From Candidatus Bathyarchaeota archaeon (GTDB lineage Archaea; Thermoproteota; CALKCG01; B24; JAGTQN01), in the NCBI GenBank assembly GCA_018396395.1, contig JAGTQN010000001.1:1-54755 (forward strand): DNA of 54,755 nucleotides. Reading direction: 5' to 3'. The stretch's first letter is position 1. Each line of letters starts with the position of its first letter. Shown here in pieces: positions 2,651 to 36,538 of this stretch. The position numbers and the translations under genes were made by a program. Under the pieces are notes generated by a model, which was not told the DNA's origin, did no database searches, and was given only the letters and a program-made list of their open reading frames with translations.

Positions 2651-3844
2651 ATGGAGAGTCCTGCGCTATCGGAGATTTTCAACCATTTCTTGAAACAGTC
2701 CATAATCCTGAAGAACCGTGAAGCTCTTCGACCAGACTATGTTCCCGATCATTTACCTCATCGAGATGAGCAGATTAGAAAGCTTGGATGGATTTTAGCT
2801 CCTGTATTAAAGGGATCGAGATGCTCAAATATGTTCATATATGGAAAACCTGGGACTGGTAAGACTGCCGTTACCCGTTTCGTCTTACAACACCTATCCG
2901 CGAAGAGTTCCGAGATAGATACTCCCCTTAGCGTTTCTTATATCAACTGCCGTCTTGCTGGAAGCGAATATAGGGTTCTCTCAATGCTGAGTCAATCAGT
3001 AAAGGTACCAGTCCCCTTTACAGGAATAGCTACCGCTGAAGTTTTCGACCGCTTTAAACAAGGTCTCAAAGCCATGGGAGGTATTCTTATCAGCGTTCTA
3101 GATGAGGTAGATATGCTTGTAAAAGCGAGCGGTGATAAGCTTCTTTATGAGCTTACAAGGATTAACGAAACCTCACCAACAGGAAAGATTGTTCTGATAG
3201 GCATATCGAACGATCTAAACTTTAAGGATCTTTTAGATCCAAGGGTTCTCAGTAGCCTTAGTGAGGAAGAAATCGTTTTCCATCCATATACGGCCGATGA
3301 GTTATACGATATCCTACTCGATCGGGCAAAGATAGCCTTAGTTCAAGATGGTGTTACAGAGGGGGCCTTAAGGCTATGTGCAGCTTTGGCTGCCGCAGAG
3401 CACGGGGATGCCAGGAGGGCTCTAGACCTCCTGAGAGTTGCTGGGGAGCTAGCTGAGCGGGAGGGAGGAAGAGCCATTACAGAGGATTATATTCGAAAGG
3501 CACAGTGGAAAATAGAGCATGATAGAGTGACAGAGGTTCTAAGGACCCTTCCTCTCCATCAAAGGCTTGTCCTCTATAGCGTTTATTTTACACAACAAGA
3601 AAATCCAAAAGAAACCCTAACGGGGAATATCTATGAGACGTACGAGAGGATTTGTAGAAAGGCTGGAATGGAACCCCTTACCCAGAGACGGGTAAGCGGT
3701 CTCCTAAATGAGCTTGACGCCATGGGAATCGTGAACTCTAAACTCGTCAATCTAGGAAGACATGGTCGCTCAAAAAGGGTCCGTTTAAGCATACCCATGG
3801 AACAGGTTCAATCCCTTTTAAAGGAAGAGACCCGTCTATCATAA
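2651..3844 (+). CDS. cdc6: Orc1/Cdc6 replication initiator (AAA+ ATPase with C-terminal winged helix)
   Basis: N-terminal LRPDYVPDHLPHRDEQI and Walker A GKPGTGKT. Walker B LDEVD, sensor region GISND, and RRALDLLRVAGE. The C-terminal winged-helix region reads LTQRRVSGLLNELDAMGIV. The gene sits directly beside the ORB elements. Confidence 0.95.
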   Translation: MESPALSEIFNHFLKQSIILKNREALRPDYVPDHLPHRDEQIRKLGWILAPVLKGSRCSNMFIYGKPGTGKTAVTRFVLQHLSAKSSEIDTPLSVSYINCRLAGSEYRVLSMLSQSVKVPVPFTGIATAEVFDRFKQGLKAMGGILISVLDEVDMLVKASGDKLLYELTRINETSPTGKIVLIGISNDLNFKDLLDPRVLSSLSEEEIVFHPYTADELYDILLDRAKIALVQDGVTEGALRLCAALAAAEHGDARRALDLLRVAGELAEREGGRAITEDYIRKAQWKIEHDRVTEVLRTLPLHQRLVLYSVYFTQQENPKETLTGNIYETYERICRKAGMEPLTQRRVSGLLNELDAMGIVNSKLVNLGRHGRSKRVRLSIPMEQVQSLLKEETRLS

Positions 3845-5467: not shown

Positions 5468-7015
5468 TTAAGGGTTTCTAAAGTCCAAGGATATAACTTC
5501 CATGGTTGACAGGTTAAGGATTGGGACTTGAGCAGGGGTGGGGTCAATCCCATTCTTCTTCAAATATTCAGTTTGCCCTTGCCACGTGCCAGAGTTCACT
5601 ATCAAGGTTCCCCTATAGGTCTTATACTTATAAACGTGAACATGTCCTGCTTGAAAAACATCGGGAGGCTCTTCTATGACTAAATAATCCTTTTTTTGGG
5701 GGGTTATGGGAGTCCTCTCCCCATAAATTGGGGATAGGTGCCTAGCCCTCAGCAGAAGCTCCATGGCTTCATGGGGTTCGCTGAAGGACATATTGGGAGC
5801 CGAAGCTACTACGTCCGGAAGGCTATTTCCATGATAAAGGAGGAACTCAAGGCCGTGAAGCCTTACTCGGGCTGGGTTTCCTAGGAGGTGTAGATTCCCT
5901 AAGCCAAGGAGGGGTTCGGCATACTTCTTAAGGATCGCTGGTTGAGGGAGGGATCGTCTAGAGGCATCGTGATTTCCTGGTATGGCGATGATCTCCACAT
6001 GTTCAGGGATCTCCTGAAGGTAGGAAGCCACAAGCCCATACTGCTCGTAGACATCCGATATGTTTAGCTCCTTTTCTTGCTCAGGATAGATGCCAATACC
6101 ATCGACGAGGTCCCCAGCTATGATTAGGTATTTCACAGTTCCAGCCAGATCCCTTTCCCATGGTGTACCCAGTTCCCCCTTCAGCCATCGGATGAAACGA
6201 TTTAGGCTCCTTCCGAGGAATTTGGTGCTTCCCACATGGAGGTCTGATGTCATAACCACTGAAACCTCAGCCTCAGCCTTGCGCTGGGGATGATCCGGAA
6301 CCTCTGGCCAAAGGATTTCCGAAGCTACCATTCTTCCCTCTCCTACCATGGAACCCACAACGCATATTACTTGATCAAGAAAAATCCTCTGGGCCCTATC
6401 AACTAGGGAGCGCTCTGCATTATGGGGAACGATGACCGTTAGGCTGGACTCTAGGTCCTCGATCTCTAGGCGAGTAATCCCACCTCTTGTTCGCTTATCA
6501 GTGACAAGTCCAATTACCTTCACACCCTTAGCTGTAGGCATCTTAAGGGCTTGTTGTATCGATACAGCATCTCTAGCATCGATCCTCTGCCTGAGAATCT
6601 TCTCTAAACGCCTGAATCGATCCCTAAAGTATTCGATGAAATCCTCGAAGGATGCCTTGGCTTCCATAAATTCTGTAGGATCGAAAAGGATATCGAGCTT
6701 CGTTTCCACCTCGGCAGCTGGAACCCTTGGGGCTTTGGCAACAGCTTCTAACCCCAAGGTACTGGCTTGTTCCTTTGGCTGTAAAAAGCTAAAGGCTTCC
6801 TCCAACAGATTCTTTGAAAGCCAAAGGGGCCGCTCCTCAGGTGATGCAGCCACCTTGGTGGCCTCCTTGACAATCTCATCCAAGTCTACATCTGGTGGAA
6901 GCCTAGATAGGAACTCAAAGCCCTCTTGGTCGATCTGATAGCCAAGCTTAAGGGCAGATACGATGGCCCTTTTAAGTCTCTCATGATGGGGATCTTTAGT
7001 CGTATTGGTTGACAA
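5468..7015 (-). CDS. polB: DNA polymerase II (PolD) small subunit DP1
   Basis: An OB-fold region precedes calcineurin-like phosphoesterase motifs: VMTSDLHVGS, IIAGDLVDGIGIY, PGNHD, GHVH. Size and architecture fit archaeal DP1. Confidence 0.9.
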   Translation of the reverse strand: MSTNTTKDPHHERLKRAIVSALKLGYQIDQEGFEFLSRLPPDVDLDEIVKEATKVAASPEERPLWLSKNLLEEAFSFLQPKEQASTLGLEAVAKAPRVPAAEVETKLDILFDPTEFMEAKASFEDFIEYFRDRFRRLEKILRQRIDARDAVSIQQALKMPTAKGVKVIGLVTDKRTRGGITRLEIEDLESSLTVIVPHNAERSLVDRAQRIFLDQVICVVGSMVGEGRMVASEILWPEVPDHPQRKAEAEVSVVMTSDLHVGSTKFLGRSLNRFIRWLKGELGTPWERDLAGTVKYLIIAGDLVDGIGIYPEQEKELNISDVYEQYGLVASYLQEIPEHVEIIAIPGNHDASRRSLPQPAILKKYAEPLLGLGNLHLLGNPARVRLHGLEFLLYHGNSLPDVVASAPNMSFSEPHEAMELLLRARHLSPIYGERTPITPQKKDYLVIEEPPDVFQAGHVHVYKYKTYRGTLIVNSGTWQGQTEYLKKNGIDPTPAQVPILNLSTMEVISLDFRNP

Positions 7016-12533: not shown

Positions 12534-14570
12534 TTAATGCCTTCTCTCACATTTTATGTATCCGTAGCGCTCCATCTCCTTAAAGTAATCAAGAAGGCGT
12601 ATGTTGGATTCGCCTGTTTCACCCTCCACAAGTTCCTCTATCTCAGCCACAGAGCGGACTCCATCGCACCACATTTGGGCCGACTGGATAACGGATCCCT
12701 TCAATCCCCATTCATGGCATTTTCTCTGCCACTCTTTTCGCTCCTCGGCAGGTATCCGAGTCAGTTGGCAAGACCCAAGGACGAGACGTTTTGGCACTAT
12801 TCTTGATGCCTCACGCTTATATCCATCCATATCTATCCATCGCCTTTTCCTAGGCTTCCATGGCTGAAATCCCAGTTCCCTGGCTACCCTTTCGAGGCTC
12901 ATGGAAGCATAGGCTTTTAGATCTTCCTTAGCATCTTTAATCCTCTTTTGAAGGCTTTCGCTTCCAGCAAGGCGGGTCACCGATTCGATGGCGATTCCAT
13001 AGCGGGTTTGCAGGTAGTTTAGCCTTCGCCATAGCTTTTCTAAGGCCTTCGCTCCTTCCCCTTCCTTCCTTTCTCCATAAACTTCGTAAAAAGGGGTTAG
13101 GAAGCCCTCCAGCTCATCAAGAATTGTCCTTTTGGCCTCGATGAAGACTTCGGAAGCGAGCCATTGGGCCTCGACCTCTCCGGCATTGGCGATAAAGTAT
13201 GCATACGTTGCGACGGCACGACCTATCCAGGCAAGCCTTCTAGGATCGAGCTTGTCTGGCGTATCCATGGATGAATGGTAGAAGGTATATGGATACTCGA
13301 TTAAGAGAGGGCATGGAATCCCTATGGATGGGTCTGCAATCATGTTATCAGCCTTCATGAAGGGAACCTCGCGCCAATTAACCAGCATCTTATCCATCAT
13401 TGTTGAATGTTCGAGGATGAGCCTTAGGAGGGTATCCGTATAGGAGCTTTGGGCATGGGGGTTCCTCGAGAGGCTTAAGAATGCCCGGCATAGGGCTTCG
13501 TTCCCTCCTACGCAGTCCAGGGTTATAGCTGCGACGGTTCGTTGAAGAAGCTCAGGTCTCTCCAGAAGGGCTCCCATGGTCCCCATGCACTCATAAGTGA
13601 AGAGCATTCTTATTCCTCGTCTAGGCTTCTTGAGCCTTCCGGATTTGATGAGGGAGTTCAGACACCTCAAAACCTCTATTGCCAGACCACACCCACTCGC
13701 ATCGTCTATGGCTCCGACTTCGTACAAGTGCCCATTTATCAGGACCTCCTCATCGGTTTCACCTTTGATCAATCCTGTTACCACATCGATCGAACCATCG
13801 TAGAAGGAAGCATCGATCTCCGCATGGATCTGAAGCCTCCTTTCCTTTTTCATGAGTTCCCTAAGCCAATGTCCCTGTCTAGGCGTTAGGACAAAGCCCC
13901 AGAACTCAGGGTCCCCCTTCTTCATACCCCAGCCCCCAAATTCGGAGCTAAACCTATCCCAGTAGCGACAGTCGGGTAGTTCCATAGGTGGACGGTAGTA
14001 ATCGATGGCGGGAAGATAATCCGATACGATGCCAAGGGCGCCATGCCTCAAAGCCTCAAGGCGGGACGCCCTAGCCGAATCCCTTGTGAAGACAACCTTT
14101 CCCTTGACTTCCAAATCCTCATAATCTTGGGCTTTGGAACCTCCATCGACCATCACGAGCTCGGCTGTAATGCCCTCAGAAGGCGTGGGCTTACTGTATA
14201 CGACGAGGGAACATGGATCCTCTTTATAGTCGCAAAGCTTTACTTCGCCTAGACCTTCTTCCTTGCCCTCGCCCTTGGATCCCCATAGAAGCGTCAGTTT
14301 GGCCGATTTGGCCTTCCAAGCCCTCGGCATGACCCAGTCCCCATAAAGCTTTTCACCATCGGCAGGGAGCTCGAAGATCTCGCCCTCGAGTCCATACTCC
14401 TCCAATTTATGGAGGCAATAAAGGGCAGCCTCATGATGCCTATCGAAGGAAGACCAGCGATCGTGGTCATGGATGTGGGCGATCAAGTCTAGGGCATTCG
14501 TTCCGGATACATAGGGTCCTATCCTCTCGAAGAGTCTCCTAAACATAGCCTTCGCCTTCCATCCTTTCAT
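12534..14570 (-). CDS. M28-like aminopeptidase-domain protein (DUF4910-type) with C-terminal winged helix
   Basis: INGHLYEVGAIDDASGCG matches the M28 H...D(D)ASG metal-ligand block. The C-terminus VRSVAEIEELVEGETGESNIRLLDYFKEMERYGYI looks like a wHTH. I prefer the Met at 14570 as the start because it forms an ATGA overlap with the stop of the upstream GNAT gene. The longest ORF reaches 14606. Confidence 0.6.
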   Translation of the reverse strand: MKGWKAKAMFRRLFERIGPYVSGTNALDLIAHIHDHDRWSSFDRHHEAALYCLHKLEEYGLEGEIFELPADGEKLYGDWVMPRAWKAKSAKLTLLWGSKGEGKEEGLGEVKLCDYKEDPCSLVVYSKPTPSEGITAELVMVDGGSKAQDYEDLEVKGKVVFTRDSARASRLEALRHGALGIVSDYLPAIDYYRPPMELPDCRYWDRFSSEFGGWGMKKGDPEFWGFVLTPRQGHWLRELMKKERRLQIHAEIDASFYDGSIDVVTGLIKGETDEEVLINGHLYEVGAIDDASGCGLAIEVLRCLNSLIKSGRLKKPRRGIRMLFTYECMGTMGALLERPELLQRTVAAITLDCVGGNEALCRAFLSLSRNPHAQSSYTDTLLRLILEHSTMMDKMLVNWREVPFMKADNMIADPSIGIPCPLLIEYPYTFYHSSMDTPDKLDPRRLAWIGRAVATYAYFIANAGEVEAQWLASEVFIEAKRTILDELEGFLTPFYEVYGERKEGEGAKALEKLWRRLNYLQTRYGIAIESVTRLAGSESLQKRIKDAKEDLKAYASMSLERVARELGFQPWKPRKRRWIDMDGYKREASRIVPKRLVLGSCQLTRIPAEERKEWQRKCHEWGLKGSVIQSAQMWCDGVRSVAEIEELVEGETGESNIRLLDYFKEMERYGYIKCERRH

Positions 14571-15439
14571 TTCTGAAGATCCTTTCGTAGCTGATAGCCT
14601 GTCCAAAAGGATGGTAGCTGGGCATCCTGCCAGCCTTCCTTAAGGAGTTCCCCCTCCTCCACGTAGGGAATTGGAAGCTCCACTCCAACCCATCTATAAC
14701 CGCCAGTAGAAGCTCTATAGGCGAAGAGCTTAAGCATCCTAAAGGCATATGCCGAATCTTTAACGAAAATATAGCCTAGCGTAACAAGATCAGGATAGAC
14801 CTCATTCCTTCGACCTATGAGAATACCTACGATCTGGTTATCCGCAAGCACAGCCAATGCCTTTTCAGGATCTGATTCGTAGACGCTAAAGTAGGCTGAT
14901 ATGAAGCGTAAGTATTCTTCGCGATCCATAAGGGGGATGAAGTCCCTCAGCCCTTCCAAGGCTATAAGGCGGCTCTCCAAGCCTTCAGGAGGCTCCAGGC
15001 TTTTTCCAATGAGTTCTAGAACGAGACGCCTTCGAATGCCTACGCATTTGAAACCATACTTTTCGTAGAAGCGAAGAGCGAAGGGCGTACCAGTAAGGAT
15101 GGCCTTAAGACCTAAGCTACTAGCCTTTTCCTCTATAGCTTTTAAAAGCATGCCTCCTATTCCCATACCCTGAAACTTAGGATGGACCGCTATCCAATGG
15201 ATTGATGCATGGGCTTCGCCATCAGGGCTTCCGAAGATGAAGCCCACAACCTTCCCTTCGGAAGTCTCAGCCACGAAAAGCCAATCAGGCCACTGCCTCA
15301 TATATTGCACAAACCTTTGACCCATGAGCCTTGTAAGCCTAGCAGTCTCTAGGAAGGACTGGTTGGCAATCCTAACAATGTCGATGACATCCTCAAGCTT
15401 CATCGTTGTTATTCTAACCCTTGGTCTCGATTGTTCCAT
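14567..15439 (-). CDS. GNAT-family N-acetyltransferase, two-lobed
   Basis: IHWIAVHPKFQGMGIGGMLLKAIEEKA...RFYEKYGF is the acetyl-CoA binding core. A second GNAT-like half of about 140 aa follows. Confidence 0.8.
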   Translation of the reverse strand: MEQSRPRVRITTMKLEDVIDIVRIANQSFLETARLTRLMGQRFVQYMRQWPDWLFVAETSEGKVVGFIFGSPDGEAHASIHWIAVHPKFQGMGIGGMLLKAIEEKASSLGLKAILTGTPFALRFYEKYGFKCVGIRRRLVLELIGKSLEPPEGLESRLIALEGLRDFIPLMDREEYLRFISAYFSVYESDPEKALAVLADNQIVGILIGRRNEVYPDLVTLGYIFVKDSAYAFRMLKLFAYRASTGGYRWVGVELPIPYVEEGELLKEGWQDAQLPSFWTGYQLRKDLQK

Positions 15440-15683: not shown

Positions 15684-18600
15684 GTGGGGTTCAGGATGTT
15701 TCCAGCAAGGAAGCCAATCGTTCATTCTTTAATTTTTTTATTAACATTTGTATTCCTGTGGAGCTTAGTATTCCTAAATCGACCTATACATGCATCAAAT
15801 AGCAATATTGTAGAAAAAGATGAAATTGTAGAGATCGTTAGAAATATTAATATTTCTAAAATTATACTCCATGCTAAATATTTTTCTAGTTTCGAATCGA
15901 GATATTCAGGTTATCCTGGATCTGATGCCGCAGCGGAGTATATTCGACAATATTTTGAGAGTTTAGGTTTAGTAGATGTAGAATTCCATGAATTTAACGT
16001 GACAGTACCCATCGACTATGGTACGAGCATTTCTTTACTCGGTCATGATGGACGGGAGAAGAGGGCCTTCAAAGCCTACACCCTAGAGCCAAACATGGTG
16101 GCACTTAGTCGAAGATCTTCTGAGGGATTGACTGGCAAGCTTGTCTATGTTGGCAAAGGTTACTTGGAAGAGATGAGCGGAAAAGATGTTGAAGGCAACA
16201 TCGTACTCATGGACTTTTCGGGAAGTAAAGACAACTGGATTAATGCCGCGAAATTAGGCGCGAAGGCCGTAGTCTTCATAGGAGAAGGCGATAGATATGA
16301 TGCCGCTCGGAAAAGTCTCTGGATCCCATTAGATTTTCCTAGAATCTTTGTCCCTGAGCCTAGCGGTTGTATGCTCAAAAAGGCTATAAACGAAACTGTC
16401 AGGGTTCTTTGTGATATGCGCTTTGAGCAAAGAACGGCAAAGAATGTAATTGGGTTCATCTATGGCAAGCAAATGCCTGAACAGTCCCTAATACTTACAG
16501 CTTACTATGACTCTTACTCTATTACTCCAGGATTTGCACCAGGTGCACAAGAATCTCTGGGCATATCAACGCTCCTTGAATTAGCACGTTTCTTCTCGGA
16601 ATATAGTAAGAGGGGAAGAGGGCCTAATAGAACCATCATGTTTGTAGCCTTCGCTGGGCATAACCAAGCTTTGTTAGGGGCAAGGGAGTTTACGGAACTA
16701 TTTCTCTTCGAGAGAAGATGGCAGAGCAAAGTTGGCTTAATGGATATGACCTACTACCCAATCATGATAAATCTTGACCTAGCCACAGACAACGACTGGG
16801 TGGTCAACCTAGGAGCAGGAGATGTATGCGCACTAGGCTATGGTACTCGAGGCCCTGCTTTCCAAGCTGTTCGATGGATCTATGATAGGTTTAAGGATGT
16901 TTACACACCTCAAATAATAGATGCTTGGAAGACTATATATGGCAGAACTTTCAGGATAGATCTTGACCCATACTATCCTGGCTCTAGAGCCCCCGAGCCC
17001 AATCACATAGTTATGGATAGTGAGCCTTACTTAGCCGCAGGGGCGAACGGATTCTCGTTCTATACAGCTTATAGTGAACGAAAGTACTACTCGACTCCAT
17101 TCGATACATATGAACGGTTGATGTGGAATAATCTTCAACCCCAAATTGAAACAATATTTTCTGTAATCTACATGCTACAGGCGGAACCCCAACTTAAGGA
17201 ACTCTCTACAGAGGTCACGCGTATTGGTGGGCGTCTTTATGGAGCCAACTACGGAAAATTATTCGGAAGAGTTGTAACTTTTAATCCCTCAATCAACCAA
17301 TATGAGGGAGTTTCCAAAGCTCTGGTAGCTATTCAGGGGCCGGGCCTTTATAGGTATATCCTTACAACTGATGAGGATGGCCTATTCACTGTCGTGGGGA
17401 TAACAGCATTCGGTACCAACTATGGAATATATCCCTTCTATCTGGACGAAAACGGTACTATCGAGTATGCTCCGGATTTTGGAATATACAGTTTCGGAAA
17501 TGATGTACAGATAACGATATGGAGGGGGGGCATCATCGGCACTCAAGAATATCCGCAGTATTTTACTGTTTTTAAGTGCGGATCTGTTGCTTTCTTCGAC
17601 TTATTAGCACCTAGAACCGGTTTTGCCTCAAGCGTCTTCCGAATTATGGACTTCAATACACACTCTACGCCCGCCCATTACAGTTTCTTCCCTCGGGAAG
17701 CAAGTCCTATTGTGGTTGCCTTCGTAGAACCCGGCACAAGGGTTGAGGCGATAGCCTTTCAAGCTGATGTGCCTATACCCTCCGCAATTATTTTGAACTC
17801 ATCGAGGATACGACCCCAAGGTAATGGGTACGAGGTCAAATACGGAAGACAACTTCTCGTGACGAATGCCTTGCTTAAGAATGCAGAAGATATATGGTTA
17901 CTGAATAACGAAAGAATCAACACATTCCTCCAATTTAATGTTTTTGAACCTGCCGCGGCCCAGCTTCATGACGCAGCTAAATCGATCTTGGATGCTTCTT
18001 GGGGCGCTTTTGAGAACAGGTCATATGGACTCGCCTTTACGAATGCTCAGCGGGCTTTGGGAGTTGAGACCAGGGCCTACGCCAGAATTCTGAGTTTATA
18101 TAACGAGACGATTAGCTCAACGATGTTCTTCTTCGCTCTCCTTGTTCCTTTCGTTTTCCTAGCTGAAAGGCTGTTCCTTTCGTGGAATGGTCCTAGAAGG
18201 CTTCTAGGCATCATTATGATCTTTATTATGGCGTTAGGCATGTTCGCTCTTTTCCATGCAGGCTTCCATCTAGGTGCAAATATGTTCATTGTCCTGATAG
18301 GCTTCGTTACGATGGCTCTTACATTACCCCTCGTACCAATTCTGGGCGGTCATGCTCAGTCAAGAATCTTAGAATGGCGGAGAGCAGTTGTAGGGCTTCA
18401 TTTCGCGGAGATAAGCAGAACGGGGGCCATTCTACTCTCGTTATCCTACGGAGTCCAGCAGATGAGAAAGCGGAGGCTTAGGACGACCCTAACCTTCACA
18501 TCGATCTTAATGATTGCCCTCGCTTTGGTTTCGATGACTTCTATGTCTGTACATAGCATAACACTACAACTTCCCACGGGAGGGGAGCCGACTCGGGTTG

Positions 18601-20156
18601 GCCTACTCGTAGCAGCTTGGATAGATCCTTTCAAAGGTATTCAGCCCATTTCGGAAGAATTATTAGAGGGAATTAGGCGCGTCTATAATGAGGGGGTATC
18701 GATAGCCCCTAGGGCATGGTTGTACAACATCCATATAGGGAATATGCCTGGCGATTTTAATGATCCATATGCGAGGGGACTTCTCAATATTTCTTCTGGA
18801 GACTCATGGCATACGGCTGCTGCAATCCTTGGAATTTCTGAAAATGAATTGAATATAGCTTACCAAGGAGATATGCAGAAGATAGAACAGATACTTCTGG
18901 ATGGGGTCTGGTTCCCATCAGAGGATGAATTATTTGTTCTCATAAGTAAAGACTATGCAGATTACCTAAACATCAGTATGTCTGACCCATCTTCAACCCT
19001 GATTAGAGTTAATGGTATTCAGATGAGAGTTTGTGGAATCTTTGATGCAAAACTCCTAGAAGGTATAAAGGAACTTGATGGGAGACCCATTATGCCCTTC
19101 GATCCCTCTGATTGGAGAAAGCGACAGCCCCTTCGAGCCCATGAGGTTCTCCTCATGCCATTTAACGCTGTAATGAGGCGCTTAGCTACTTGGGGGCCCT
19201 TTATTACCCAAGTGGCTTTGTATATCGAAAATCCTGTCAAAGTTAAGGAACTAGCAGAATCTATAACTCTCTACTATGACTTCGATGTCTATGCCTCTAC
19301 TGGAGAAAGAGTTTACTTGTTTGCTCATGGAGTCTCAAGGGAAGTAAGTGGACTAACTTTTATAATACTCCCCTCTATCATAGGAGTCCTTAGCCTTTTC
19401 AACATCATGTTAGGCAATGTAATAGAGAGGAGGAGGGAAATATCCACCTTCGCCTCTGTTGGTCTATCTCCCTTGCATGTCGGAAGTATATTCCTTACGG
19501 AGGCAGGAATATACGCTGTTTTAGGAGGGACCTTAGGATACCTCTTTGGCATCATAATCGCCTCGGGAGCGTATAGATTCTATGGAATAGCCGTGAATTA
19601 TTCTTCAATCATGGTGGTAGCCGTCGTACTTCTCTCCATGGGGTTAACGACCTCCTCATCCATCTATCCAATCTATAAATGCGCAAGGCTAGTAACACCT
19701 TCTCTTGAAAGAAAGTGGAAGGTTCCGACTAAGCCAAAAGGAGATACTTGGGAAATTCCCTTGCCCTTTGTTTCCAGCGAGGCTGAGGCAAGGGGGATAA
19801 TAGCATTTATGAAGGAATTTTATGAGGGACATATGATCAGAGATGAGTCGCCAGTCTTTTTCGCCCAGAATCTCTCCATAGAGGAGAGAGCTACGAATAA
19901 CATTACCGTTAAGTCTCTTATAGCGACCGTGGCTATAGAACCTTATCCGCGGGGGATATCCCAGATTGCTATCTTTAATGCATCTATAACTGAGGGTAGG
20001 GCGAGTTACACCTTATTCCTTAAAAGGCTCACAGGAGAACAATCGAGTTGGCAACACCTCAATAAATCCTTCATAAGTGAAGTCCGGAGGCAACTTCTCA
20101 TATGGCGAAGCCTCAGGGATCATGAGAAGAAACGGTATATGGAGGCTAAATTGTAA
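15684..20156 (+). CDS. Giant membrane protein: signal anchor, PA domain, M28-like (apparently inactive) ectodomain, FtsX/MacB-type permease module, unknown C-terminal domain
   Basis: N-terminal TM helix IVHSLIFLLTFVFLWSLVFL and PA-like GKLVYVGKGY..VEGNIVLMD..AAKLGAKAVVF. M28-like block NVIGFIYGK..LILTAYYDSYS..PGAQESLG..FVAFAGHNQALLGAREF. FtsX hallmarks are RKRRLRTTLTFTSILMIALALV, a large loop, and LFNIMLGNVIERRREISTFASVGLSPLHVGSIFLTEAGIYAVLGGTLGYLFG. The start may instead be the ATG at 15696. Confidence 0.8.
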   Translation: MGFRMFPARKPIVHSLIFLLTFVFLWSLVFLNRPIHASNSNIVEKDEIVEIVRNINISKIILHAKYFSSFESRYSGYPGSDAAAEYIRQYFESLGLVDVEFHEFNVTVPIDYGTSISLLGHDGREKRAFKAYTLEPNMVALSRRSSEGLTGKLVYVGKGYLEEMSGKDVEGNIVLMDFSGSKDNWINAAKLGAKAVVFIGEGDRYDAARKSLWIPLDFPRIFVPEPSGCMLKKAINETVRVLCDMRFEQRTAKNVIGFIYGKQMPEQSLILTAYYDSYSITPGFAPGAQESLGISTLLELARFFSEYSKRGRGPNRTIMFVAFAGHNQALLGAREFTELFLFERRWQSKVGLMDMTYYPIMINLDLATDNDWVVNLGAGDVCALGYGTRGPAFQAVRWIYDRFKDVYTPQIIDAWKTIYGRTFRIDLDPYYPGSRAPEPNHIVMDSEPYLAAGANGFSFYTAYSERKYYSTPFDTYERLMWNNLQPQIETIFSVIYMLQAEPQLKELSTEVTRIGGRLYGANYGKLFGRVVTFNPSINQYEGVSKALVAIQGPGLYRYILTTDEDGLFTVVGITAFGTNYGIYPFYLDENGTIEYAPDFGIYSFGNDVQITIWRGGIIGTQEYPQYFTVFKCGSVAFFDLLAPRTGFASSVFRIMDFNTHSTPAHYSFFPREASPIVVAFVEPGTRVEAIAFQADVPIPSAIILNSSRIRPQGNGYEVKYGRQLLVTNALLKNAEDIWLLNNERINTFLQFNVFEPAAAQLHDAAKSILDASWGAFENRSYGLAFTNAQRALGVETRAYARILSLYNETISSTMFFFALLVPFVFLAERLFLSWNGPRRLLGIIMIFIMALGMFALFHAGFHLGANMFIVLIGFVTMALTLPLVPILGGHAQSRILEWRRAVVGLHFAEISRTGAILLSLSYGVQQMRKRRLRTTLTFTSILMIALALVSMTSMSVHSITLQLPTGGEPTRVGLLVAAWIDPFKGIQPISEELLEGIRRVYNEGVSIAPRAWLYNIHIGNMPGDFNDPYARGLLNISSGDSWHTAAAILGISENELNIAYQGDMQKIEQILLDGVWFPSEDELFVLISKDYADYLNISMSDPSSTLIRVNGIQMRVCGIFDAKLLEGIKELDGRPIMPFDPSDWRKRQPLRAHEVLLMPFNAVMRRLATWGPFITQVALYIENPVKVKELAESITLYYDFDVYASTGERVYLFAHGVSREVSGLTFIILPSIIGVLSLFNIMLGNVIERRREISTFASVGLSPLHVGSIFLTEAGIYAVLGGTLGYLFGIIIASGAYRFYGIAVNYSSIMVVAVVLLSMGLTTSSSIYPIYKCARLVTPSLERKWKVPTKPKGDTWEIPLPFVSSEAEARGIIAFMKEFYEGHMIRDESPVFFAQNLSIEERATNNITVKSLIATVAIEPYPRGISQIAIFNASITEGRASYTLFLKRLTGEQSSWQHLNKSFISEVRRQLLIWRSLRDHEKKRYMEAKL

Positions 20157-20716: not shown

Positions 20717-22741
20717 TTAAACTGGGCCAGGTTCGTCAACATTATTCGGAAGAATTTCATAGATGAGCTTCTCACCTATGATCGAGAGGTCTTCCATGAT
20801 TGTGTTAAGCCTTCGGAAAGTCTGTTCAAGCACTTGAGCCTCGATCTCGATTCTATGCAACTTCTCTGGACGTGACCTCAAAGCCTTAGAATATCGCACA
20901 GGCTGAATCCAAGGCAATGTATAGAGGTATGCACCATCTATACAAAAGCATGTTGCCTTTAGTTCAGGGGTTATCACAAGACGTCGAATAAGGTTAGCCA
21001 ATCTGAAATATCTCCTCAGCGCCTCCATTTTCTCGTCAGGAAGTCTTTTAGGAAGTCTCGAAACTTCTTGAAGAAGTCTACCGTCTAGGTTTCCTTCCCA
21101 AGGTCCCTGATCAATTGCCTTCAGATAAGCACATAAGCTCAGGGTTAAAACCCTATTCAATTTATCGGCTTCGATCTCCATCTTTTCGAGCTCTTTTAAA
21201 GCTCCAGCTAAGTTTATGCCAAGCTTAGATGCTTTCTTTACAAGGTCACGAAGGCCTTCCTTTCCTTCCATAAGCATTCTAGCATAGCATTTGTAGTCTA
21301 GAGGAAGAACATCAGACTCAGATAAAGTGAGAAGCATTACTCCAAGCCCTTCAATCGGTTCCTTAAACCGATCTGGTCTAAGAAGTTCCTCAGGTTCAGG
21401 CTCATCGGCGGGTCCATGATAAGGGTTAGACTTAACGAGGTAAGGAGTTAACCTTTTACCGACCCAATCCTTCCCGCCTCTAGTTACAGCTGGGCTCGTT
21501 ACTGGAATGCAGCCATCGATGAAGAACACGATCATATCAAATCCTGCACCTCGTACAAGACTATAACCTCCAGCCTTAAGCCCTGGAACGACAGAAGTGG
21601 CTACATATTTGCTGAGCGATCCGAGTTCTGGAGAACCCCATCCACCCGTGATAAGGTCTTTACCGAAAACTCCTCCATCGACATCGATATAGGCTACGAT
21701 CTTATTCTTGATAGATTCATGTTCATCCAAATAGGCATAAGAGCCGACGCATCCCTCTTCTTCTCCTGTCCAGAAGCAGAATTTTAAAGTTCTGCGAGGT
21801 CTAATACCCTCTTTCAGAAGTTCTCCGAAGGCATGCGCAACCCCAAGGATAACTCCACATCCACTCGAATTGTCGAGAACACCTCTACCGAAGGAATCAT
21901 AATGTGCCCCAACCATTACTACTTCATCTGGAAACTCGGAACCAGGGATTGTGGCGACCACATTAAATGCTTGTTTCCTTTCAACATTCTTCAAGACCTT
22001 TATTAAGACCTTCACGTTCTCTCTTCGGCATAGGCTTCGGAGATAGGCACCATCCTTCCTTTGAACTATCACAGCTGGTATCATGGGTAAACTCTCTTCA
22101 GGGAACTTATAGAACATATAATCTCCTTGATGTTCGAGCCATGCATAGGTAGAACCTTTTGGAAGCATTCGTATGGGCCTATGCCAGCCACCTGCTGGGC
22201 CTTCAAAATAGCTATAGTTGAGCCTTGTAGCCACTACTGCTCCAACAGCACCATGAATCCTAGCCAGAATAAGCCTGGATCTAGCCCAAAAACCGTCCAT
22301 AAGAATGATCTTTCCCTTTGCATCTATACCCCTCCTCTCTAATTTCTTATAGTCCTCTTCCCAACCTCTTCCAACATATAGGAGACTTCCAGAAACCCCC
22401 TCTGGTTTTGTGGCATTTCCATATATCATTGGTGTGCATGGAATGTCAACTTTCTTTGGTGATATGATGGTAAGCGAGCATTCTAATACATCGTGGCGTT
22501 CACATTCGAAGCTTTGTACTTCGGTATGAAGCCCACATTCCTTCAACCGTTTTGCAATGTATTTGGCTTTCTTTATGTTTTCAGGCATTCCCATAAGCTG
22601 GTTTACACCCTTGGGCCCTACCTTACACATCTCCACGGTCCAATCGTAAGCTTTTTTAAAGTCTACAATATGACAAAATTTTCTCTCCAGTTCCTTCTGT
22701 TTTTCTGAGACTGGAAAAGCAAAGCCCATTGAGGTATTCAT
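20717..22741 (-). CDS. M28-family metallopeptidase with PA domain and C-terminal helical domain (M28B-like architecture)
   Basis: Canonical ligand blocks are intact: MVGAHYDSFG, VLDNSSGCG, FWTGEEEGCVGSYAY, AYIDVDGG. PA-like GSLLYVGRGW..AKGKIILMD..GAVGAVVA. No N-terminal signal sequence is evident. Confidence 0.85.
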   Translation of the reverse strand: MNTSMGFAFPVSEKQKELERKFCHIVDFKKAYDWTVEMCKVGPKGVNQLMGMPENIKKAKYIAKRLKECGLHTEVQSFECERHDVLECSLTIISPKKVDIPCTPMIYGNATKPEGVSGSLLYVGRGWEEDYKKLERRGIDAKGKIILMDGFWARSRLILARIHGAVGAVVATRLNYSYFEGPAGGWHRPIRMLPKGSTYAWLEHQGDYMFYKFPEESLPMIPAVIVQRKDGAYLRSLCRRENVKVLIKVLKNVERKQAFNVVATIPGSEFPDEVVMVGAHYDSFGRGVLDNSSGCGVILGVAHAFGELLKEGIRPRRTLKFCFWTGEEEGCVGSYAYLDEHESIKNKIVAYIDVDGGVFGKDLITGGWGSPELGSLSKYVATSVVPGLKAGGYSLVRGAGFDMIVFFIDGCIPVTSPAVTRGGKDWVGKRLTPYLVKSNPYHGPADEPEPEELLRPDRFKEPIEGLGVMLLTLSESDVLPLDYKCYARMLMEGKEGLRDLVKKASKLGINLAGALKELEKMEIEADKLNRVLTLSLCAYLKAIDQGPWEGNLDGRLLQEVSRLPKRLPDEKMEALRRYFRLANLIRRLVITPELKATCFCIDGAYLYTLPWIQPVRYSKALRSRPEKLHRIEIEAQVLEQTFRRLNTIMEDLSIIGEKLIYEILPNNVDEPGPV

Positions 22742-22900: not shown

Positions 22901-24847
22901 TTAGTAGGGAAGGGACCAGGCAGCATTTCTGATTAGGGCAATGATAGAGCCGATGGCTGCTGCTATGCCTTCGCCAAGCGCCAATCCAGCAATCGCGATA
23001 ATTTTGTAATCAGTCCATCCTTTTCCTATTTTTCTGGTCAGAAAGATATTGATGATGCCCCCAACTAAGAGGGATAGGGGTTGGGGTATAGGTTGACTAA
23101 ATCCAGCGGCGAAACCTATGATTGAGAATGGGAACTTGAGGAAGTGACAAGTAATGGTCGCGGCACTCGATATCACGAATGCGAAAATGATATTCTCAGG
23201 AACCCACGATATCTGCGATCTTGAAACCCAGATGACGCTATTCAGGACTTGTATAGGCCAGAAGATGACTGTGGCAGGATAAGATGAAGAGGGGATGGGC
23301 GAAATCCTCCAAAAGGCCTCGACGTAGAGAAAACCTAAAAACAAAGCTATGGCCATCGCTATTATGTATGCAAGTATCCAACTCCTGTGGCTCGTCTCAG
23401 TCATATCGCATACCGCCAAGTTTGCGCAAATTCCTGCTCCACCCCCTCCTAAAGGTGGACTTGTATACCAAATGTCTATGCCTTGATATCCGCTTACAAG
23501 GTAAGCCCCTTCACGCACATACGGGATGCTAATCGCGTATCCTGTTTCGCCAATCCCTCTTCCCGCTATGATAGAGCTTATAAGAGGCATTCCAATCCCG
23601 AGAAGGATTAAAATCCATGCAGGAAAGCCTGGCACGAGAATGATTGGTATCGCCGTGAGAGGTATTACTCCTCCAAGCCATAGGACGATAGGGACGAGCG
23701 AAAACCTAGCTCCCTTTCCACCCCTCATCAAAGCCTTCAAAGACCCTATAAGAATATCCCAAACTCGTCTCCAGTTAAGTGCTAGGGGTATCAATCCTGC
23801 TGCTAAGCTTACTCCTATGTTAGGGCTTGCCCAGATTCGGAGCATCGACATGTTCCAAATATCTCTAATCCGCATACCCGAGGCATAACCAAAAAGGCCT
23901 CCCAACCTTCCAGGTGTTGGTGGGAAAAGGTATACAAGTATAGGATTTCCGATAACATAAGGACCTAATGAACCTATGAAGATCGATACAACCACATTGA
24001 AAGGTATTATGAAGCCTGTCGCAAACACAAAAAGGTCTGTTGCAAAGCCAAGGGTAGCTCCAGGCAGGATGGCATCTATGGGGATCTCGGCCCAAGGTAT
24101 CGGAATGGGTGCAATAGCAAAGTTTGTCGCAAACGGAAATGCGAAGGCCAAGGTGCCGTAAGCCAGACCTACGACAGCAGCGATGACCATAACACTCATC
24201 TTCCGTGATTCCCTTGTTGCCACGGTGACAACCATTTCCCCAGAAACCCTCTGCAGAGGGAACTGTAACCTCTCGATTTTTACATAGAGATTGTAGGTCA
24301 AAAGCCCCAGACCTATATCACATAAGAAGCCAAATGCGACACTGAAGTATGAGAGGAGTATCGGGACTCGAAAGTCGGGATGGAACAAAGTCCTTTCTAT
24401 AACAGCGGTAGAGGTTGGCGGAGGAGCCCACCAATCAGGAATAACTTCCCGTAAAGGAATGTTGGTTCCAGGTGCTGTAAAAGTTAAGGTATACGAACTT
24501 ACATTCCTGTAGTAAAGATTAAAGATGAAGCCCGTAGCCGATACAGTTGCACCAGAGACTGCAGCACAAGACCATATAATGAAGAGTTCTTGTTTACTAA
24601 GCGGGGTACCGAAGAACCTTGTGATTTCGCTGAAAAGTAGCACAGTCGTATAAGATATAGTCCACCACATGATGTCTGCATTTCCTAAAGCCAATGTCAT
24701 CCAGATGCTCGCAGGGAGAAAGACGACACCTGTGTAGATGAGGGCTAGAAAAGATCTGAAGGTCAATCCATTTATGTAGCTAATATCGGGAGATCCGGGC
24801 TCTCTGATCGTTGTAATAGTCTCCGTCTTTTCTGTTTCGGTAGTCAT
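22901..24847 (-). CDS. Polytopic membrane protein (at least 12 predicted TM helices), putative peptide/solute permease, OPT-like or uncharacterised family
   Basis: 648 aa and hydrophobic almost throughout, with repeated G/P-rich TM segments. The N-terminal GLTFRSFLALIYTG is reminiscent of OPT-type starts. Distantly similar to 27939..29924. Confidence 0.55.
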   Translation of the reverse strand: MTTETEKTETITTIREPGSPDISYINGLTFRSFLALIYTGVVFLPASIWMTLALGNADIMWWTISYTTVLLFSEITRFFGTPLSKQELFIIWSCAAVSGATVSATGFIFNLYYRNVSSYTLTFTAPGTNIPLREVIPDWWAPPPTSTAVIERTLFHPDFRVPILLSYFSVAFGFLCDIGLGLLTYNLYVKIERLQFPLQRVSGEMVVTVATRESRKMSVMVIAAVVGLAYGTLAFAFPFATNFAIAPIPIPWAEIPIDAILPGATLGFATDLFVFATGFIIPFNVVVSIFIGSLGPYVIGNPILVYLFPPTPGRLGGLFGYASGMRIRDIWNMSMLRIWASPNIGVSLAAGLIPLALNWRRVWDILIGSLKALMRGGKGARFSLVPIVLWLGGVIPLTAIPIILVPGFPAWILILLGIGMPLISSIIAGRGIGETGYAISIPYVREGAYLVSGYQGIDIWYTSPPLGGGGAGICANLAVCDMTETSHRSWILAYIIAMAIALFLGFLYVEAFWRISPIPSSSYPATVIFWPIQVLNSVIWVSRSQISWVPENIIFAFVISSAATITCHFLKFPFSIIGFAAGFSQPIPQPLSLLVGGIINIFLTRKIGKGWTDYKIIAIAGLALGEGIAAAIGSIIALIRNAAWSLPY

Positions 24848-27938: not shown

Positions 27939-29924
27939 TTAGAACTCTACAGTAACGCCTGGAGTCTTGAACCACCTTGGTACTACATATGCAGCCATAA
28001 ACACAAATGACATTAGCGCACCACCCATGGCTATGCCTATGAAAAGAGGTAAATATTTTTCGTAGAGTTTCGTTCCTCCGGTCTTGAGCATAGCGAACTT
28101 GGCAAGCCAGACGATTATCGCCATGAACCAAATTCCAGTGTAGTTATACTCAGCTGAAAAACCGATAATGATGCCGATCGGATGGAATGGCCACCACGCA
28201 AAACGGGTCCTAAGGAACCACATAACCCCAGGTAGGAGAAATGCAAGGGCTGCCGTAGACCAGTCGGTTGAGCCCCATCCAGGACCGTGGGGCATCCAGT
28301 TCGCAAGCCCACTTCCGCTCTTCACCATCGCTGCCGCTTCCTGAGGCCCTAAAGCCGTCCAAGGCCAGTTTGTGTACCCTTGGGTCATAGTGCTCCAGTA
28401 CGCTATCGAGAAACCGACGAATATTGAAACAGCGAGAGCACTAAGCGAGGCTACGATGACATCTTTCATATTCGTGCCAGTATCTGATGCAACCCTACAA
28501 GCGACAAGCGTGGCTATGGAGTTGTTGTCCTGCGCATACGAGGCTGTATAAAAGCCGCTCCAGAGCATCTCATTAAGCATTCCAGGTTTCTGGCTTAAGT
28601 TGGCGTAGGCATCGATAAAGCCGTTACTACCCCAGAACAGCTCATTGGCTGGGTAATACCACAGGAAAGTCGTTGTGAAGGCGAAACCTGTTTCAAGAAG
28701 CATGCGTACGATCCCAAGGAACAGGATGAGGTTTAGGATGATGTTTACGAGCATAAATTCGGGACTAGCCCCGAAAGCTACAGGTATCAGCCATTGTAGC
28801 AAAAGGGAAACTACAAACATGAGTAGCAATGTCCTCGTCGTGAAGCCCTGTAGCCGGATTTCCTCCGCAGCTTTCTCAGCAGAAGGCTTGCCTAAAGCAG
28901 CCCTAACTATGTTGATGACATTCCTCCAACCAAAGACTAGCATCCATACACCCAGCGAGAAGAGTCCCCAATATGCAGAAAACTGTCCATAGTAATGTGA
29001 AAGTGGAGCGTACCAAAGGAGCGCACCTCGACCCTTACTAGAGACATCCGGCCAACCAAGAATCCATACGCCTATAGGCGGAATGAGAATTCTCATAATG
29101 AAGTAAGAGAGAAACATTGTCATTAAGATGTCTTGAGGCACAAGGAATAGGAGGGATATCACGATAAGATTGTATCCTGGATAGAAACCCGCATTCGGTA
29201 ATGGCGGGTATATCTGGGTATTGACATCCCAGTTGGGGATTGTAGGGATGATTTGAAGGTTCCAAAGCGTGGGCGGAATGGTATAGATGACTCCGATTAT
29301 TAACCCAATCCAGAAGAACTTGTTGAGGATCCTAGGCCTCCCTACCTCCGATACGGGTCGGTCGATCATTGCTAAGGGTATGTGAGCCATTGGAAAGGAA
29401 AGCTTTTCAACATCTATCCATTGGCTCTTCCAAAGCAGGGCAGCGAAATTCAAGGTGAAGACTGCGAAGATCATCGCGAGAGAGGATATGACAACAGTTG
29501 CTGGTGAGTAAAGCAACGGGTTAAGGAAGGGCTTCAGTTGCGGTCCACCACCTCGCGTCATAGCGGCCCAGATCCAGAACTGCGGGCCCCCCATTGCCAA
29601 GTAAGTGGCCGTAAAGGCTGGTGCAAAGGACATCGTAAGTACAATAAGGGCTTCATGGGGGCTAAGTCTATACCTTCGCGGAAGAACTGCTGTAATTGCT
29701 GCGACGAAAAAAAATGGTATAAACGCTTGTAAATTATAAGTCCATTGACCGAAACCACCTTTAGGTGCCCAGAAACCGAAGTCTGATCCAGCAAAGCTGT
29801 GTCCCCAAACGCCGTATGTGGTATTCATAGTCTCAAGAGTCCAGTAAACCGTAAAAATGACCGCCAAAGCCATTCCAATCGCTGTGGCTCGAGGCGTCAG
29901 TCCTCTTGTTATAGCTTCTCCCAT
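27939..29924 (-). CDS. Polytopic membrane protein, putative permease; distant paralogue of 22901..24847
   Basis: 661 aa with many TM helices. N-terminal GLTPRATAIGMALAVIF. It shares the motif VEKLSFPM (IERLQFPL in the other protein) and has a similar length. Confidence 0.55.
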   Translation of the reverse strand: MGEAITRGLTPRATAIGMALAVIFTVYWTLETMNTTYGVWGHSFAGSDFGFWAPKGGFGQWTYNLQAFIPFFFVAAITAVLPRRYRLSPHEALIVLTMSFAPAFTATYLAMGGPQFWIWAAMTRGGGPQLKPFLNPLLYSPATVVISSLAMIFAVFTLNFAALLWKSQWIDVEKLSFPMAHIPLAMIDRPVSEVGRPRILNKFFWIGLIIGVIYTIPPTLWNLQIIPTIPNWDVNTQIYPPLPNAGFYPGYNLIVISLLFLVPQDILMTMFLSYFIMRILIPPIGVWILGWPDVSSKGRGALLWYAPLSHYYGQFSAYWGLFSLGVWMLVFGWRNVINIVRAALGKPSAEKAAEEIRLQGFTTRTLLLMFVVSLLLQWLIPVAFGASPEFMLVNIILNLILFLGIVRMLLETGFAFTTTFLWYYPANELFWGSNGFIDAYANLSQKPGMLNEMLWSGFYTASYAQDNNSIATLVACRVASDTGTNMKDVIVASLSALAVSIFVGFSIAYWSTMTQGYTNWPWTALGPQEAAAMVKSGSGLANWMPHGPGWGSTDWSTAALAFLLPGVMWFLRTRFAWWPFHPIGIIIGFSAEYNYTGIWFMAIIVWLAKFAMLKTGGTKLYEKYLPLFIGIAMGGALMSFVFMAAYVVPRWFKTPGVTVEF

Positions 29925-32782: not shown

Positions 32783-32981
32783 TCTCTAGTCTAGGATCTC
32801 TCCAGTTGATCTCGGATTCGAAACGCATTCAATCTAAGCCACCAGTCTTCGTAGAAGACTTTAAAATGTTTCCCTGCTTTGTGGATTAATATAAATTAAA
32901 TTGTACGACCCATGATCTTCCTTATCTACTGACTGAAGGGTTGTTCTTATATGACATGTCCTCGGCGAAGAATTTGAAAAA

Positions 32982-34982: not shown

Positions 34983-35031
34983 CTACCCCCTCGCATCATA
35001 ATTTCTGGATTCTCGAGATTGGACAGGGTTA

Positions 35032-36282: not shown

Positions 36283-36538
36283 CTTTCTTCAAGGTATTTT
36301 TCTTGGTGGGATTTTAAAGCCTTTCTATGACTTTTTAACCACAGTTTATCGATTATATAGAAGAATTTCATTCACTTCATAGATATTAACATCGCATAAT
36401 CAGAGGGTAAGAACTTTTAGATCCATACGGATCATCATGGTCTCACCATACCTATTTAGGAGCTCCCTTTATAGTTAGCCTTCTTAAGGCTTAAAACTCT
36501 CAACAATATACAGAAGGGACAAATAGAGGCAGACCGAT

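Follow-up and report, generated by a model that had tools for sequence, protein, structure and literature searches.

A large prokaryotic family of proteins with a PA/M28-like head on a MacB/FtsX-type membrane module, and its gene linkage to OPT-like transporters

In the 54,755-nt stretch of Candidatus Bathyarchaeota archaeon DNA analysed here (NCBI GenBank assembly GCA_018396395.1, contig JAGTQN010000001.1, positions 1–54,755; hereafter, the window), positions 15684..20156 of the forward strand form an uninterrupted open reading frame (ORF) of 1490 amino acids (aa) plus a stop codon, with a GTG start, as had been stated in an original prediction made from the sequence alone. The encoded protein, a fusion of PA/M28-like and MacB/FtsX-like parts according to the ORF call and Pfam, is a real member of a large, conserved and undescribed family, in which a peptidase-like extracellular head that has lost its catalytic residues is joined to a MacB-type membrane module and a conserved cytoplasmic domain. 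The genes of this family are linked to genes for OPT-like polytopic membrane proteins, and no linked cognate ABC ATPase gene was found in the archaeal loci. The OPT-like linkage shifts the functional hypothesis towards solute uptake, and we propose, tentatively and with slightly less than even confidence, that the fusion is a surface-exposed receptor or accessory subunit of a secondary transporter system of the OPT superfamily.

Architecture and family of the fusion protein

Pfam matches on the fusion comprised Peptidase_M28 (PF04389) at aa 254–491 (E 9e-13; 48.8 bits against a cut-off of 21.3 bits), FtsX at aa 1225–1335 (E 6e-12) and PA (PF02225) at aa 150–202 (E 1e-4), the last scoring 22.6 bits, slightly under its 23.9-bit cut-off. 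Hydropathy analysis identified a transmembrane or signal segment at aa 12–30 (15717..15773, + strand; the AlphaFold2 (AF2) helix spans aa 12–31), an ectodomain extending to approximately aa 810, three transmembrane segments (TMs) at aa 812–832, 840–860 and 866–887, a basic cytoplasmic linker, FtsX TM1 at aa 938–956, a loop of ~270 aa (957–1225), TM2–TM4 at aa 1226–1320 and a tail at aa 1336–1490. By this topology, the head and the loop are outside the cell and the tail is inside, in a MacB-like arrangement, and the fusion is an 8-TM protein, or a 7-TM protein if a signal peptide is cleaved. The N-terminal segment would serve as a signal anchor or else as a signal peptide that is cleaved off, with a candidate cleavage site between PIHA and SN. 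The closest homologues of the fusion are 1486 aa long, among them P0001 (95% identity across 100% of the fusion length) and P0002 (65% identity), and translation therefore probably starts at the ATG at 15696 (MFPARKP...), which would give a 1486-aa product.

The chain was modelled by AF2 in two pieces, each from a 52-sequence alignment. In the model of aa 1–830 (pLDDT 88.5, pTM 0.88), an M28 domain with a PA insertion is followed by a beta-rich region (aa 520–726) and by a three-helix stalk (aa 729–829) that runs into the membrane. When this model was compared with the PDB by Foldseek, it matched the PA-containing aminopeptidase 2ek8 (E 2e-24), BSAP and PaAP, and further matches were obtained to GCPII, NAALADase-L and transferrin receptor 1 (TfR1; 7zqs, E 7e-22). 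The alignment with PA-containing aminopeptidases extended over 470–520 columns, and several homologues of the fusion carry PF02225. The head (aa ~45–500; 15816..17183, +), delimited by Pfam, phmmer, Foldseek and family column counts, has both the alpha/beta fold and the sequence profile of M28, with a PA domain inserted in the peptidase domain according to the sub-cut-off Pfam score and the model; the architecture given in the original prediction, with signal anchor, PA domain and M28-like domain, was borne out. The part of the ectodomain left unassigned is ~320 aa long, instead of the ~450 aa first estimated. Between the head and the membrane lie the beta-rich region (17241..17861, +), which has no Pfam match and, from its AF2 secondary structure, probably forms beta-sandwich domains, and the helical stalk at aa 729–811 (17868..18116, +), whose modelled helices (729–750, 756–777 and 781–829) continue into the first helix of the TM bundle. 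Short paralogues of the family carry a CarboxypepD_reg-like domain (Pfam) at the N-terminal end of their ectodomain, and aa 559–598 of the fusion gave a weak BLASTP match (E 0.046) to aa 67–105 of one of them (locus L037, 12827-15853), which does not establish that the two regions are equivalent.

The membrane part begins with an extra 3-TM bundle (aa 812–887; 18117..18344, +), seen in hydropathy and as AF2 helices, and a cytoplasmic linker of basic amphipathic helices (aa 888–937; 18345..18494, +; ..QQMRKRRLRTT). These are followed by the MacB-type TM1 (aa 938–956) with its extracytoplasmic core domain (aa 957–1225; together 18495..19358, +), identified by Foldseek and by Pfam annotation of homologues, and by FtsX TM2–TM4 with the coupling-helix motif ERRREISTFASVGLSPLHV (aa 1226–1335; 19359..19688, +), identified by Pfam, phmmer and Foldseek. 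The AF2 model of aa 790–1490 (pLDDT 86.4) matched MacB (5gko, E 6e-11) and also Spr0694-0695, LolCDE, YtrEF and HrtBA, and in phmmer the FtsX region matched MacB (5lil) and LolC (7arh). The TM1–TM2 loop resembled the MacB periplasmic domains 3ftj, 5c59 and 5lj8 (Foldseek E 1e-4 to 8e-4; TMt up to 0.63, for 3ftj), many homologues are annotated with MacB_PCD (PF12704), and Foldseek matches to FtsEX structures were weak (8tzk, E 0.02; 8hd0, E 0.08). The Pfam and Foldseek matches to FtsX and MacB bear out the predicted FtsX/MacB module, in which an FtsX domain of four TMs has its TM1 and TM2 separated by an extracytoplasmic domain.

The chain ends in a family-specific cytoplasmic domain (aa 1336–1490, VTPSLERKWKVPTKPKGDTWEIPLPF...; 19689..20153, +), recognised by conservation and by a tail-profile search. 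It has 155 aa, close to the ~150 aa first given for an unknown C-terminal domain, and has no Pfam match and no PDB sequence match even at E ≤ 10. Its predicted fold is beta-alpha-beta4-alpha, with invariant Trp, Pro and Arg columns, and its Foldseek matches were weak throughout (PsbP, SRPBCC and BamC; E 0.02–0.09). NCBIfam has no specific model for the fusion, the LolC/E, MacB, DevC and ADOP models all being sub-threshold.

A search with the whole protein returned 489 clusters at 90% identity, and at least 115 homologues are full-length (1430–1560 aa, 27–33% identity, 96–100% coverage, the same Pfam set). They come from NCBI, JGI, ENA and Logan assemblies of Bathyarchaeia, Thermoprotei, Armatimonadota and WOR-3, and bear generic names such as 'FtsX-like permease family protein', 'M28 family peptidase' and 'ABC-type antimicrobial peptide transport system permease'. 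The tail-domain profile detected 1566 clusters at 50% identity (E ≤ 1e-3), 1344 of them at E ≤ 1e-10. The domain stands at the extreme C-terminus in all 150 matches listed, mostly in proteins of 1430–1570 aa, in some of ~970–1140 aa, and in others that are short and probably fragments. Several paralogues of the family can occur in one genome. That the ORF is a chimera created by assembly, a possibility raised in the original prediction, or that it is a two-gene fusion in decay, is practically inconceivable, since more than 115 independent full-length homologues match it with 96–100% coverage, conservation is continuous across every domain junction, and the window locus is 97% identical to locus L007 in a metagenome-assembled genome of hot-spring Bathyarchaeia (JAWCLV010000001.1). 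No published description of this architecture or family was found in a literature search, in line with the earlier view of it as undescribed; the architecture is not singular, as the number of clusters shows.

A remodelled M28 active site

The fusion shares with the PA-containing M28 aminopeptidases (2ek8, BSAP and PaAP) and GCPII the fold, the PA insertion and a recognisable scaffold of motifs, but it has substitutions at five of the six catalytic or ligand positions. In the phmmer alignment with 2ek8, tAYYDS of the fusion faces GSHHDS, PGAQES-LG faces PGANDDASG, FAGHNQALLGA faces FGAEENGLIGS, and YYSTPFDT faces WYHTPNDT, so that the substitutions first seen by eye (AYYDS for SHHDS, QES for NDD, GHN for AEE) held in a proper alignment. 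The canonical set H-D-E-E-D-H is H97/D117/E151/E152/D179/H256 of AAP. With this set placed in the motifs after AAP and GCPII, the last ligand His falls in the YHTPxDT motif, at S470 of the fusion. The set then reads Y274-E290-H326-N327-D365-S470 in the fusion. Among the five metal ligands (His-Asp-Glu-Asp-His), D365 alone is kept and E290 is a conservative change, and the general-base Glu of the EE motif is replaced by H326.

Active-site columns were counted over 119 full-length family members. Neither the canonical H-D-E-E-D-H signature nor the general-base Glu was present in any of them (0/119 for each). Position 274 is Y in 63 members, H in 38 and F in 13, and position 290 is E in 79, S in 20 and D in 17. 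D276 is invariant, D365 is retained in 108 of the 119, and position 326 is His in 104, whereas the Zn1 ligand positions 327 and 470 vary freely. Because none of the members retains the canonical signature, these counts indicate that the active-site loss is ancestral to the family, and because His326 is conserved although the canonical set is lost, they point to a pseudo-peptidase under selection, with a pocket (D276, E290, H326 and D365) that has been remodelled and is not decaying.

A different explanation of the same pocket is that the head is still a hydrolase, acting through a non-canonical site, for example with one metal on E290, D365 and H326, and trimming extracellular peptides at the mouth of an OPT importer. 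The conservation of H326, D276, D365 and E/D290 would agree with this, as would His274 in 38 of the 119 members, which completes a one-metal (Zn2-type) site, and an OPT-like partner compatible with peptide uptake. However, the general-base Glu is missing from all members, the Zn1 ligand positions are free to vary, the fusion itself has Y274, N327 and S470, and M28 enzymes are not known to function in the absence of the Glu-Glu pair. We consider residual hydrolysis quite unlikely.

Non-catalytic proteins of the M28/PA fold include transferrin receptor 1, nicastrin and nicalin. These likewise place an M28/PA-like ectodomain without the canonical site on a membrane protein or complex, but they are eukaryotic single-pass proteins, whereas the head of the fusion is carried on a MacB-type polytopic module and is OPT-linked; the relation shown is that of the shared fold. 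Nicalin gave a weak sequence match to the fusion (E 0.003), and Pfam Nicastrin is annotated on the homologue P0029.

OPT-like partner genes and a proposed role in uptake

Fusion loci were collected from species-representative genomes in a search that used an FtsX-plus-tail alignment. The 57 loci obtained are nearly all from broad-sense Thermoproteota (Bathyarchaeia, Brockarchaeota, Thermofilales, Thermoproteales and Nitrososphaerota), and bacterial members are under-sampled because the pattern VTPS..R.W. favours archaeal variants. In 47 of the 57, the gene for a polytopic OPT-like protein of 630–670 aa directly adjoins the fusion gene in the same orientation (downstream of it in 41 loci and upstream in 6), and 3 more loci have such a gene nearby. 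When only the 40 loci with 2.2 kb or more on either side are counted, 33 have it adjacent, 3 have it nearby and 4 do not have it. This partner, often accompanied by a DUF6785/6784 gene, had been overlooked in the original prediction. Start and stop codons of the two genes often overlap (in L001, for example, the last position of the fusion gene is 14548 and the first of its partner is 14545), and the pairing is present in archaea, Armatimonadota and WOR-3. Proteins of the OPT superfamily are marked by a match to the OPT profile and a polytopic architecture of ~16 TMs; Pfam OPT matched 9 of 30 aligned members of the partner family (best E 1e-18). Pairwise distances among the fusions and among their adjacent partners were correlated over 41 pairs (r = 0.93, a value inflated by close relatives; maximum of 2000 permutations, 0.21), which nevertheless shows that the pair is inherited and duplicated as one unit. 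Genomes contain three to four fusion/OPT-like pairs, with four as the maximum (e.g., L024, L035, L041 and L052 in QMSB01), a multiplicity typical of substrate-specific uptake systems.

In the window, the cognate partner, a probable OPT-superfamily protein (648 aa; 22901..24847, −), was identified by homology to abutting partners, with 32% identity to that of L001 (E 3e-95), which carries PF03169, 31% to that of L005 (E 2e-95) and 28% to that of L003 (E 3e-56). Its gene is 2.7 kb from the fusion gene, on the opposite strand. The nearest relative of the window pair, for fusion and partner alike, is the pair at L008, and the arrangement in the window is derived, the partner having been displaced and inverted in this lineage. 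A DUF6785/DUF6784 polytopic membrane protein (661 aa; 27939..29924, −; Pfam) is also encoded in the window. At 21 of the 57 loci, a DUF6785/6784 gene adjoins either the fusion gene or the OPT-like gene, and at 8 one is nearby; the homologue at L010 has a weak full-length Pfam OPT match (E 0.0026, below the gathering score). These genes form the second recurrent partner family, which is distantly OPT-like.

Two variants of the locus were also observed. In some archaeal loci, a short paralogue of ~1000 aa (CarboxypepD_reg + MacB_PCD + FtsX, without the M28/PA head) directly follows the OPT-like gene (L033, 12738-15608; L037, 12827-15853; L039, 9319-12342; L044, 6854-9895; L054, 11056-14178), and this paralogue might pair with the long form as a heterodimer. 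In a Nitrososphaerota / 'Archaeon HR02' clade (L049, L050, L051, L053 and L057), there is no adjacent OPT-like gene; in the intact loci L049, L051, L053 and L057, two conserved ORFs (~339 and ~296 aa), whose copies in L053 have no Pfam match, come after the fusion gene, and in L050 the fusion gene is fragmented.

Directly downstream of the window OPT-like gene is a gene for a canonical, apparently cytoplasmic M28 aminopeptidase (674 aa; 20717..22741, −; Pfam M28 E 7e-23). It retains AHYDS, DNSSG, GEEEG, DVDG and YHGPAD, so that all M28 motifs are readable and the gene is as intact as was originally claimed, and it has no N-terminal hydrophobic segment or signal sequence. The OPT-like gene lies 160 nt upstream on the same strand, so that the two genes appear to be co-transcribed and are likely to form an importer-plus-aminopeptidase operon. 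The M28 gene is a lineage-specific insertion, found only in the window and L007. Three M28-type genes are clustered here, namely an M28+DUF4910 gene (12534-14606, −), the fusion gene and the canonical gene. The apparent co-transcription and the M28/DUF4910 gene upstream favour a peptide as the substrate at the window locus. The characterised representatives of the OPT family act as cation symporters for oligopeptides or metal chelates, and all of them are importers; prokaryotic members were biochemically uncharacterised as of a 2011 survey, whose genome-context analysis suggested peptides as substrates for most prokaryotic subclusters and xylo-oligosaccharides for one (PMC3061005).

Taken as a subunit of such an uptake system, the fusion might work as follows. 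The non-catalytic head, which has neither the co-catalytic zinc site nor the general-base Glu, would capture an extracellular oligomer as a ligand, at the window locus most likely a peptide, and would thereby resemble other non-catalytic M28/PA proteins (the transferrin receptor, nicastrin and nicalin). The beta-sandwich domains and the helical stalk would hold the head above the MacB-type module, which, together with its periplasmic core domain and probably as a dimer, would form a membrane platform by which delivery to the proton-driven OPT-like permease next to it is positioned or gated. The conserved 155-aa domain joined to TM4 would take the place where a nucleotide-binding domain (NBD) would dock, in an archaeal gene module that is without the usual cytoplasmic ATPase. 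The binding-protein-dependent TRAP and TTT systems combine an extracytoplasmic capture component with a secondary transporter that runs on an ion gradient. The likeness to these would be one of functional analogy alone, since the folds are unrelated and the proposed capture component is itself a large polytopic membrane protein.

Several points weigh against this proposal. Physical coupling of the fusion to the OPT-like protein is suggested by gene adjacency alone, and the window OPT-like protein itself has no Pfam OPT match at E ≤ 0.01, its assignment being made via homologues that do match. In about one family member in three, a possible one-metal site persists (H274, D/E290 and D365), which would make residual catalysis possible in those members. 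The coupling-helix motif after TM2 (ERxKEIGIxSSLGLSP) ranks among the best-conserved segments of the family, which would fit continued docking of an NBD, and a LolD/MacB-type NBD and a mini-FtsX are encoded in the same operon as the fusion in all three Armatimonadota loci. As regards peptides, the flanks of the family lean towards carbohydrate metabolism: the 133 flanking ORFs of non-redundant loci contain no recurrent neighbour outside the core, and include GFO_IDH_MocA (5), GH130, GHL10, pectate lyase and DUF6259 (2 each) and Peptidase_U32 (2); in L001, a GH10 gene lies between two OPT-like genes. The substrate class is uncertain for this reason, and may differ between paralogues.

Since prokaryotic OPT-superfamily proteins, including DUF6785/6784, are biochemically uncharacterised, the OPT-like proteins might not be importers at all, and the fusion might instead belong to an envelope or export machine that handles surface-layer, lipid or glycan substrates. 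Characterised MacB-type modules do act on envelope substrates (PMC5985334), and the Armatimonadota gene comes after a cluster of LPS-core-type (lipopolysaccharide) glycosyltransferases. We regard an envelope role as decidedly improbable, however, because the multiple divergent paralogue pairs per genome resemble substrate-specific uptake systems, the neighbours are catabolic (glycoside hydrolases, sugar oxidoreductases and peptidases), and every characterised OPT member is an importer (PMC3061005).

ATPase linkage, wider surroundings and significance

The original prediction had stressed that no partner ATPase is encoded near the fusion, and this was borne out for the window and for the archaeal loci, but not for Armatimonadota. 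A six-frame scan for Walker A and the ABC signature, together with phmmer searches with two NBD queries, detected no ABC ATPase in the 55-kb window, where no ORF has both motifs and the Walker A matches belong to sequences of another kind, among them Orc1/Cdc6 and a protein of the GPN-loop GTPase type. NBDs were present in only 12 of the 57 loci, mixed in type, strand and distance, and no recurrent adjacent MacB-type NBD was found among ~50 archaeal loci. The nearby archaeal ABC ATPases were rejected as partners, being of MalK, CcmA or phosphonate type or separated by unrelated genes; the NBD at L053 belongs to a phosphonate importer, and the sole MacB/LolD-like one in archaeal loci, at L038, lies on the opposite strand at a distance of 4.5 kb, with PadR, wyosine-synthesis and radical-SAM genes in between. 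An ABC ATPase in the same operon, of the LolD/MacB type, was found in three Armatimonadota loci only (L003, 10001-19482; L064, 10001-19406; L065, 10001-19456). The operon there has six genes, encoding in this order the fusion, an OPT-like protein, a 301-aa protein without a Pfam match, a PqqD-like protein, a 209-aa mini-FtsX and an ABC NBD (GPSGSGKST). The mini-FtsX is without a large loop, and the PqqD-like protein is a possible peptide-binding RRE-type domain. Because of these operons and of the conserved coupling helix, the lack of an ATPase in archaea is a finding on gene linkage and not on function.

The main competitor of the uptake proposal is accordingly a conventional type VII (MacB-type) ABC system with an ATPase encoded elsewhere and shared by paralogues, a possibility that follows from the Armatimonadota operons. 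ATP-driven mechanotransmission would in that case set the core domain and the head in motion, so that a substrate might, for instance, be extracted, expelled or passed on. The strongly conserved coupling-helix motif, the fact that the closest folds (MacB, LolCDE, YtrEF and HrtBA) are ATP-driven and the mini-FtsX and NBD genes in 3 of 3 Armatimonadota loci are in its favour, and one NBD could serve several paralogues per genome. The absence of a recurrent adjacent MacB-type NBD from ~50 archaeal loci, with only the remote L038 gene on the opposite strand, and of any ABC ATPase from the window argue the other way, as does the conserved 155-aa domain directly after TM4. The separately encoded MacB-type permeases LolC, FtsX and HrtB simply end after TM4. 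In addition, the Armatimonadota NBD may serve the neighbouring mini-FtsX alone. On balance, we view this alternative as unlikely, although it is a serious one.

The idea that the fusion works like FtsEX, with an ATPase-driven module controlling a fused hydrolase, received little support: no FtsE was found among linked genes in archaea, the loop is closer to the MacB periplasmic domain than to its FtsX counterpart, and the head is degenerate across the family, without catalytic residues. EnvC-, PcsB- and RipC-like genes were not seen in Pfam scans of window and flank ORFs, in which no search was aimed at them. In comparison with MacB, LolCDE and FtsEX in general (type VII ABC systems; PF02687 + PF12704), the fusion shares the four-TM FtsX module, the MacB-like domain between TM1 and TM2 and the coupling-helix motif, but an ATPase is neither fused to it nor encoded beside it in the window or archaeal loci, it adds three TMs and a ~780-aa ectodomain before the module and the 155-aa cytoplasmic domain after TM4, and has as its operon partner an OPT-type secondary transporter rather than an NBD, adaptor or hydrolase. 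The ADOP proteins of Acidobacteria (TIGR03434), which by the TIGRFAM description are orphan duplicated FtsX-type permeases not encoded beside an ATPase, matched the fusion weakly (E 0.004; 15.2 bits against a cut-off of 622). They have two FtsX modules, where the fusion has a single one, and have no M28/PA head, no such tail and no known OPT linkage. Fold places the fusion in the M28/PA as well as the MacB/FtsX superfamily, but it lacks features that define M28 peptidases (metal ligands and general base), type VII ABC systems (a linked ATPase) and FtsEX (FtsE, an FtsX-type extracellular domain and a separate hydrolase). None of the closest functional analogues (TfR1/nicastrin/nicalin, ADOP and TRAP/TTT) combines the features of the fusion.

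Elsewhere in the window, a putative chromosomal replication origin probably lies beside an orc1/cdc6 gene (2651..3844; Pfam Cdc6_C, Cdc6_lid and AAA). An inverted pair of 25-nt elements (2136-2160 and 2318-2342), which resemble the archaeal origin recognition box (ORB), precedes this gene, with the core TCCAGTGGAAA exact on both strands. A third ORB-like copy (2497-2507) has one mismatch, an AT-rich palindrome occupies 2441-2464, and a gene for the PolD small subunit (5468..7015, −) is near the putative origin. On the other side of the fusion gene, 30143-42176 is a run of large, mostly uncharacterised proteins that are probably extracytoplasmic or degradative: one of 878 aa with no Pfam match, one of 665 aa that is transglutaminase-like, one of 1174 aa with GATase1_like, DUF7408 and MG2, and one of 654 aa that is DUF4838/GH67-like. 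DUF4838 and GFO_IDH_MocA genes also flank the Armatimonadota family gene. Rfam gave no match in the window.

A broader generalization of the uptake proposal, which we hold to be rather doubtful, is that the family represents a class of receptor-assisted secondary transporters, in which an ATPase-less MacB-type scaffold, its NBD exchanged for a cytoplasmic domain, is complexed with proton-driven OPT permeases, and which would be found widely and in multiple copies in Thermoproteota and also in some bacteria. Within such a class, either ligand capture by the dead-peptidase head would gate uptake, or the ion-driven cycle of the permease would power MacB-style mechanotransmission. MacB/FtsX-type modules are currently understood as ATP-driven mechanotransmitters. 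A very large family of more than 1300 clusters (50% identity, E ≤ 1e-10) appears to have dropped the linked ATPase, to have acquired a cytoplasmic domain of its own along with a pseudo-peptidase head, and to travel with OPT-type transporters; if this is real, the known roles of the MacB fold would widen. It would also provide the first functional handle on the prokaryotic OPT and DUF6785/6784 proteins, and bears on how uncultured archaea of sediments and hot springs, such as Bathyarchaeia and Brockarchaeota, acquire organic oligomers. Through this family, MacB-type modules and OPT transporters are connected in a concrete way that can be put to the test.

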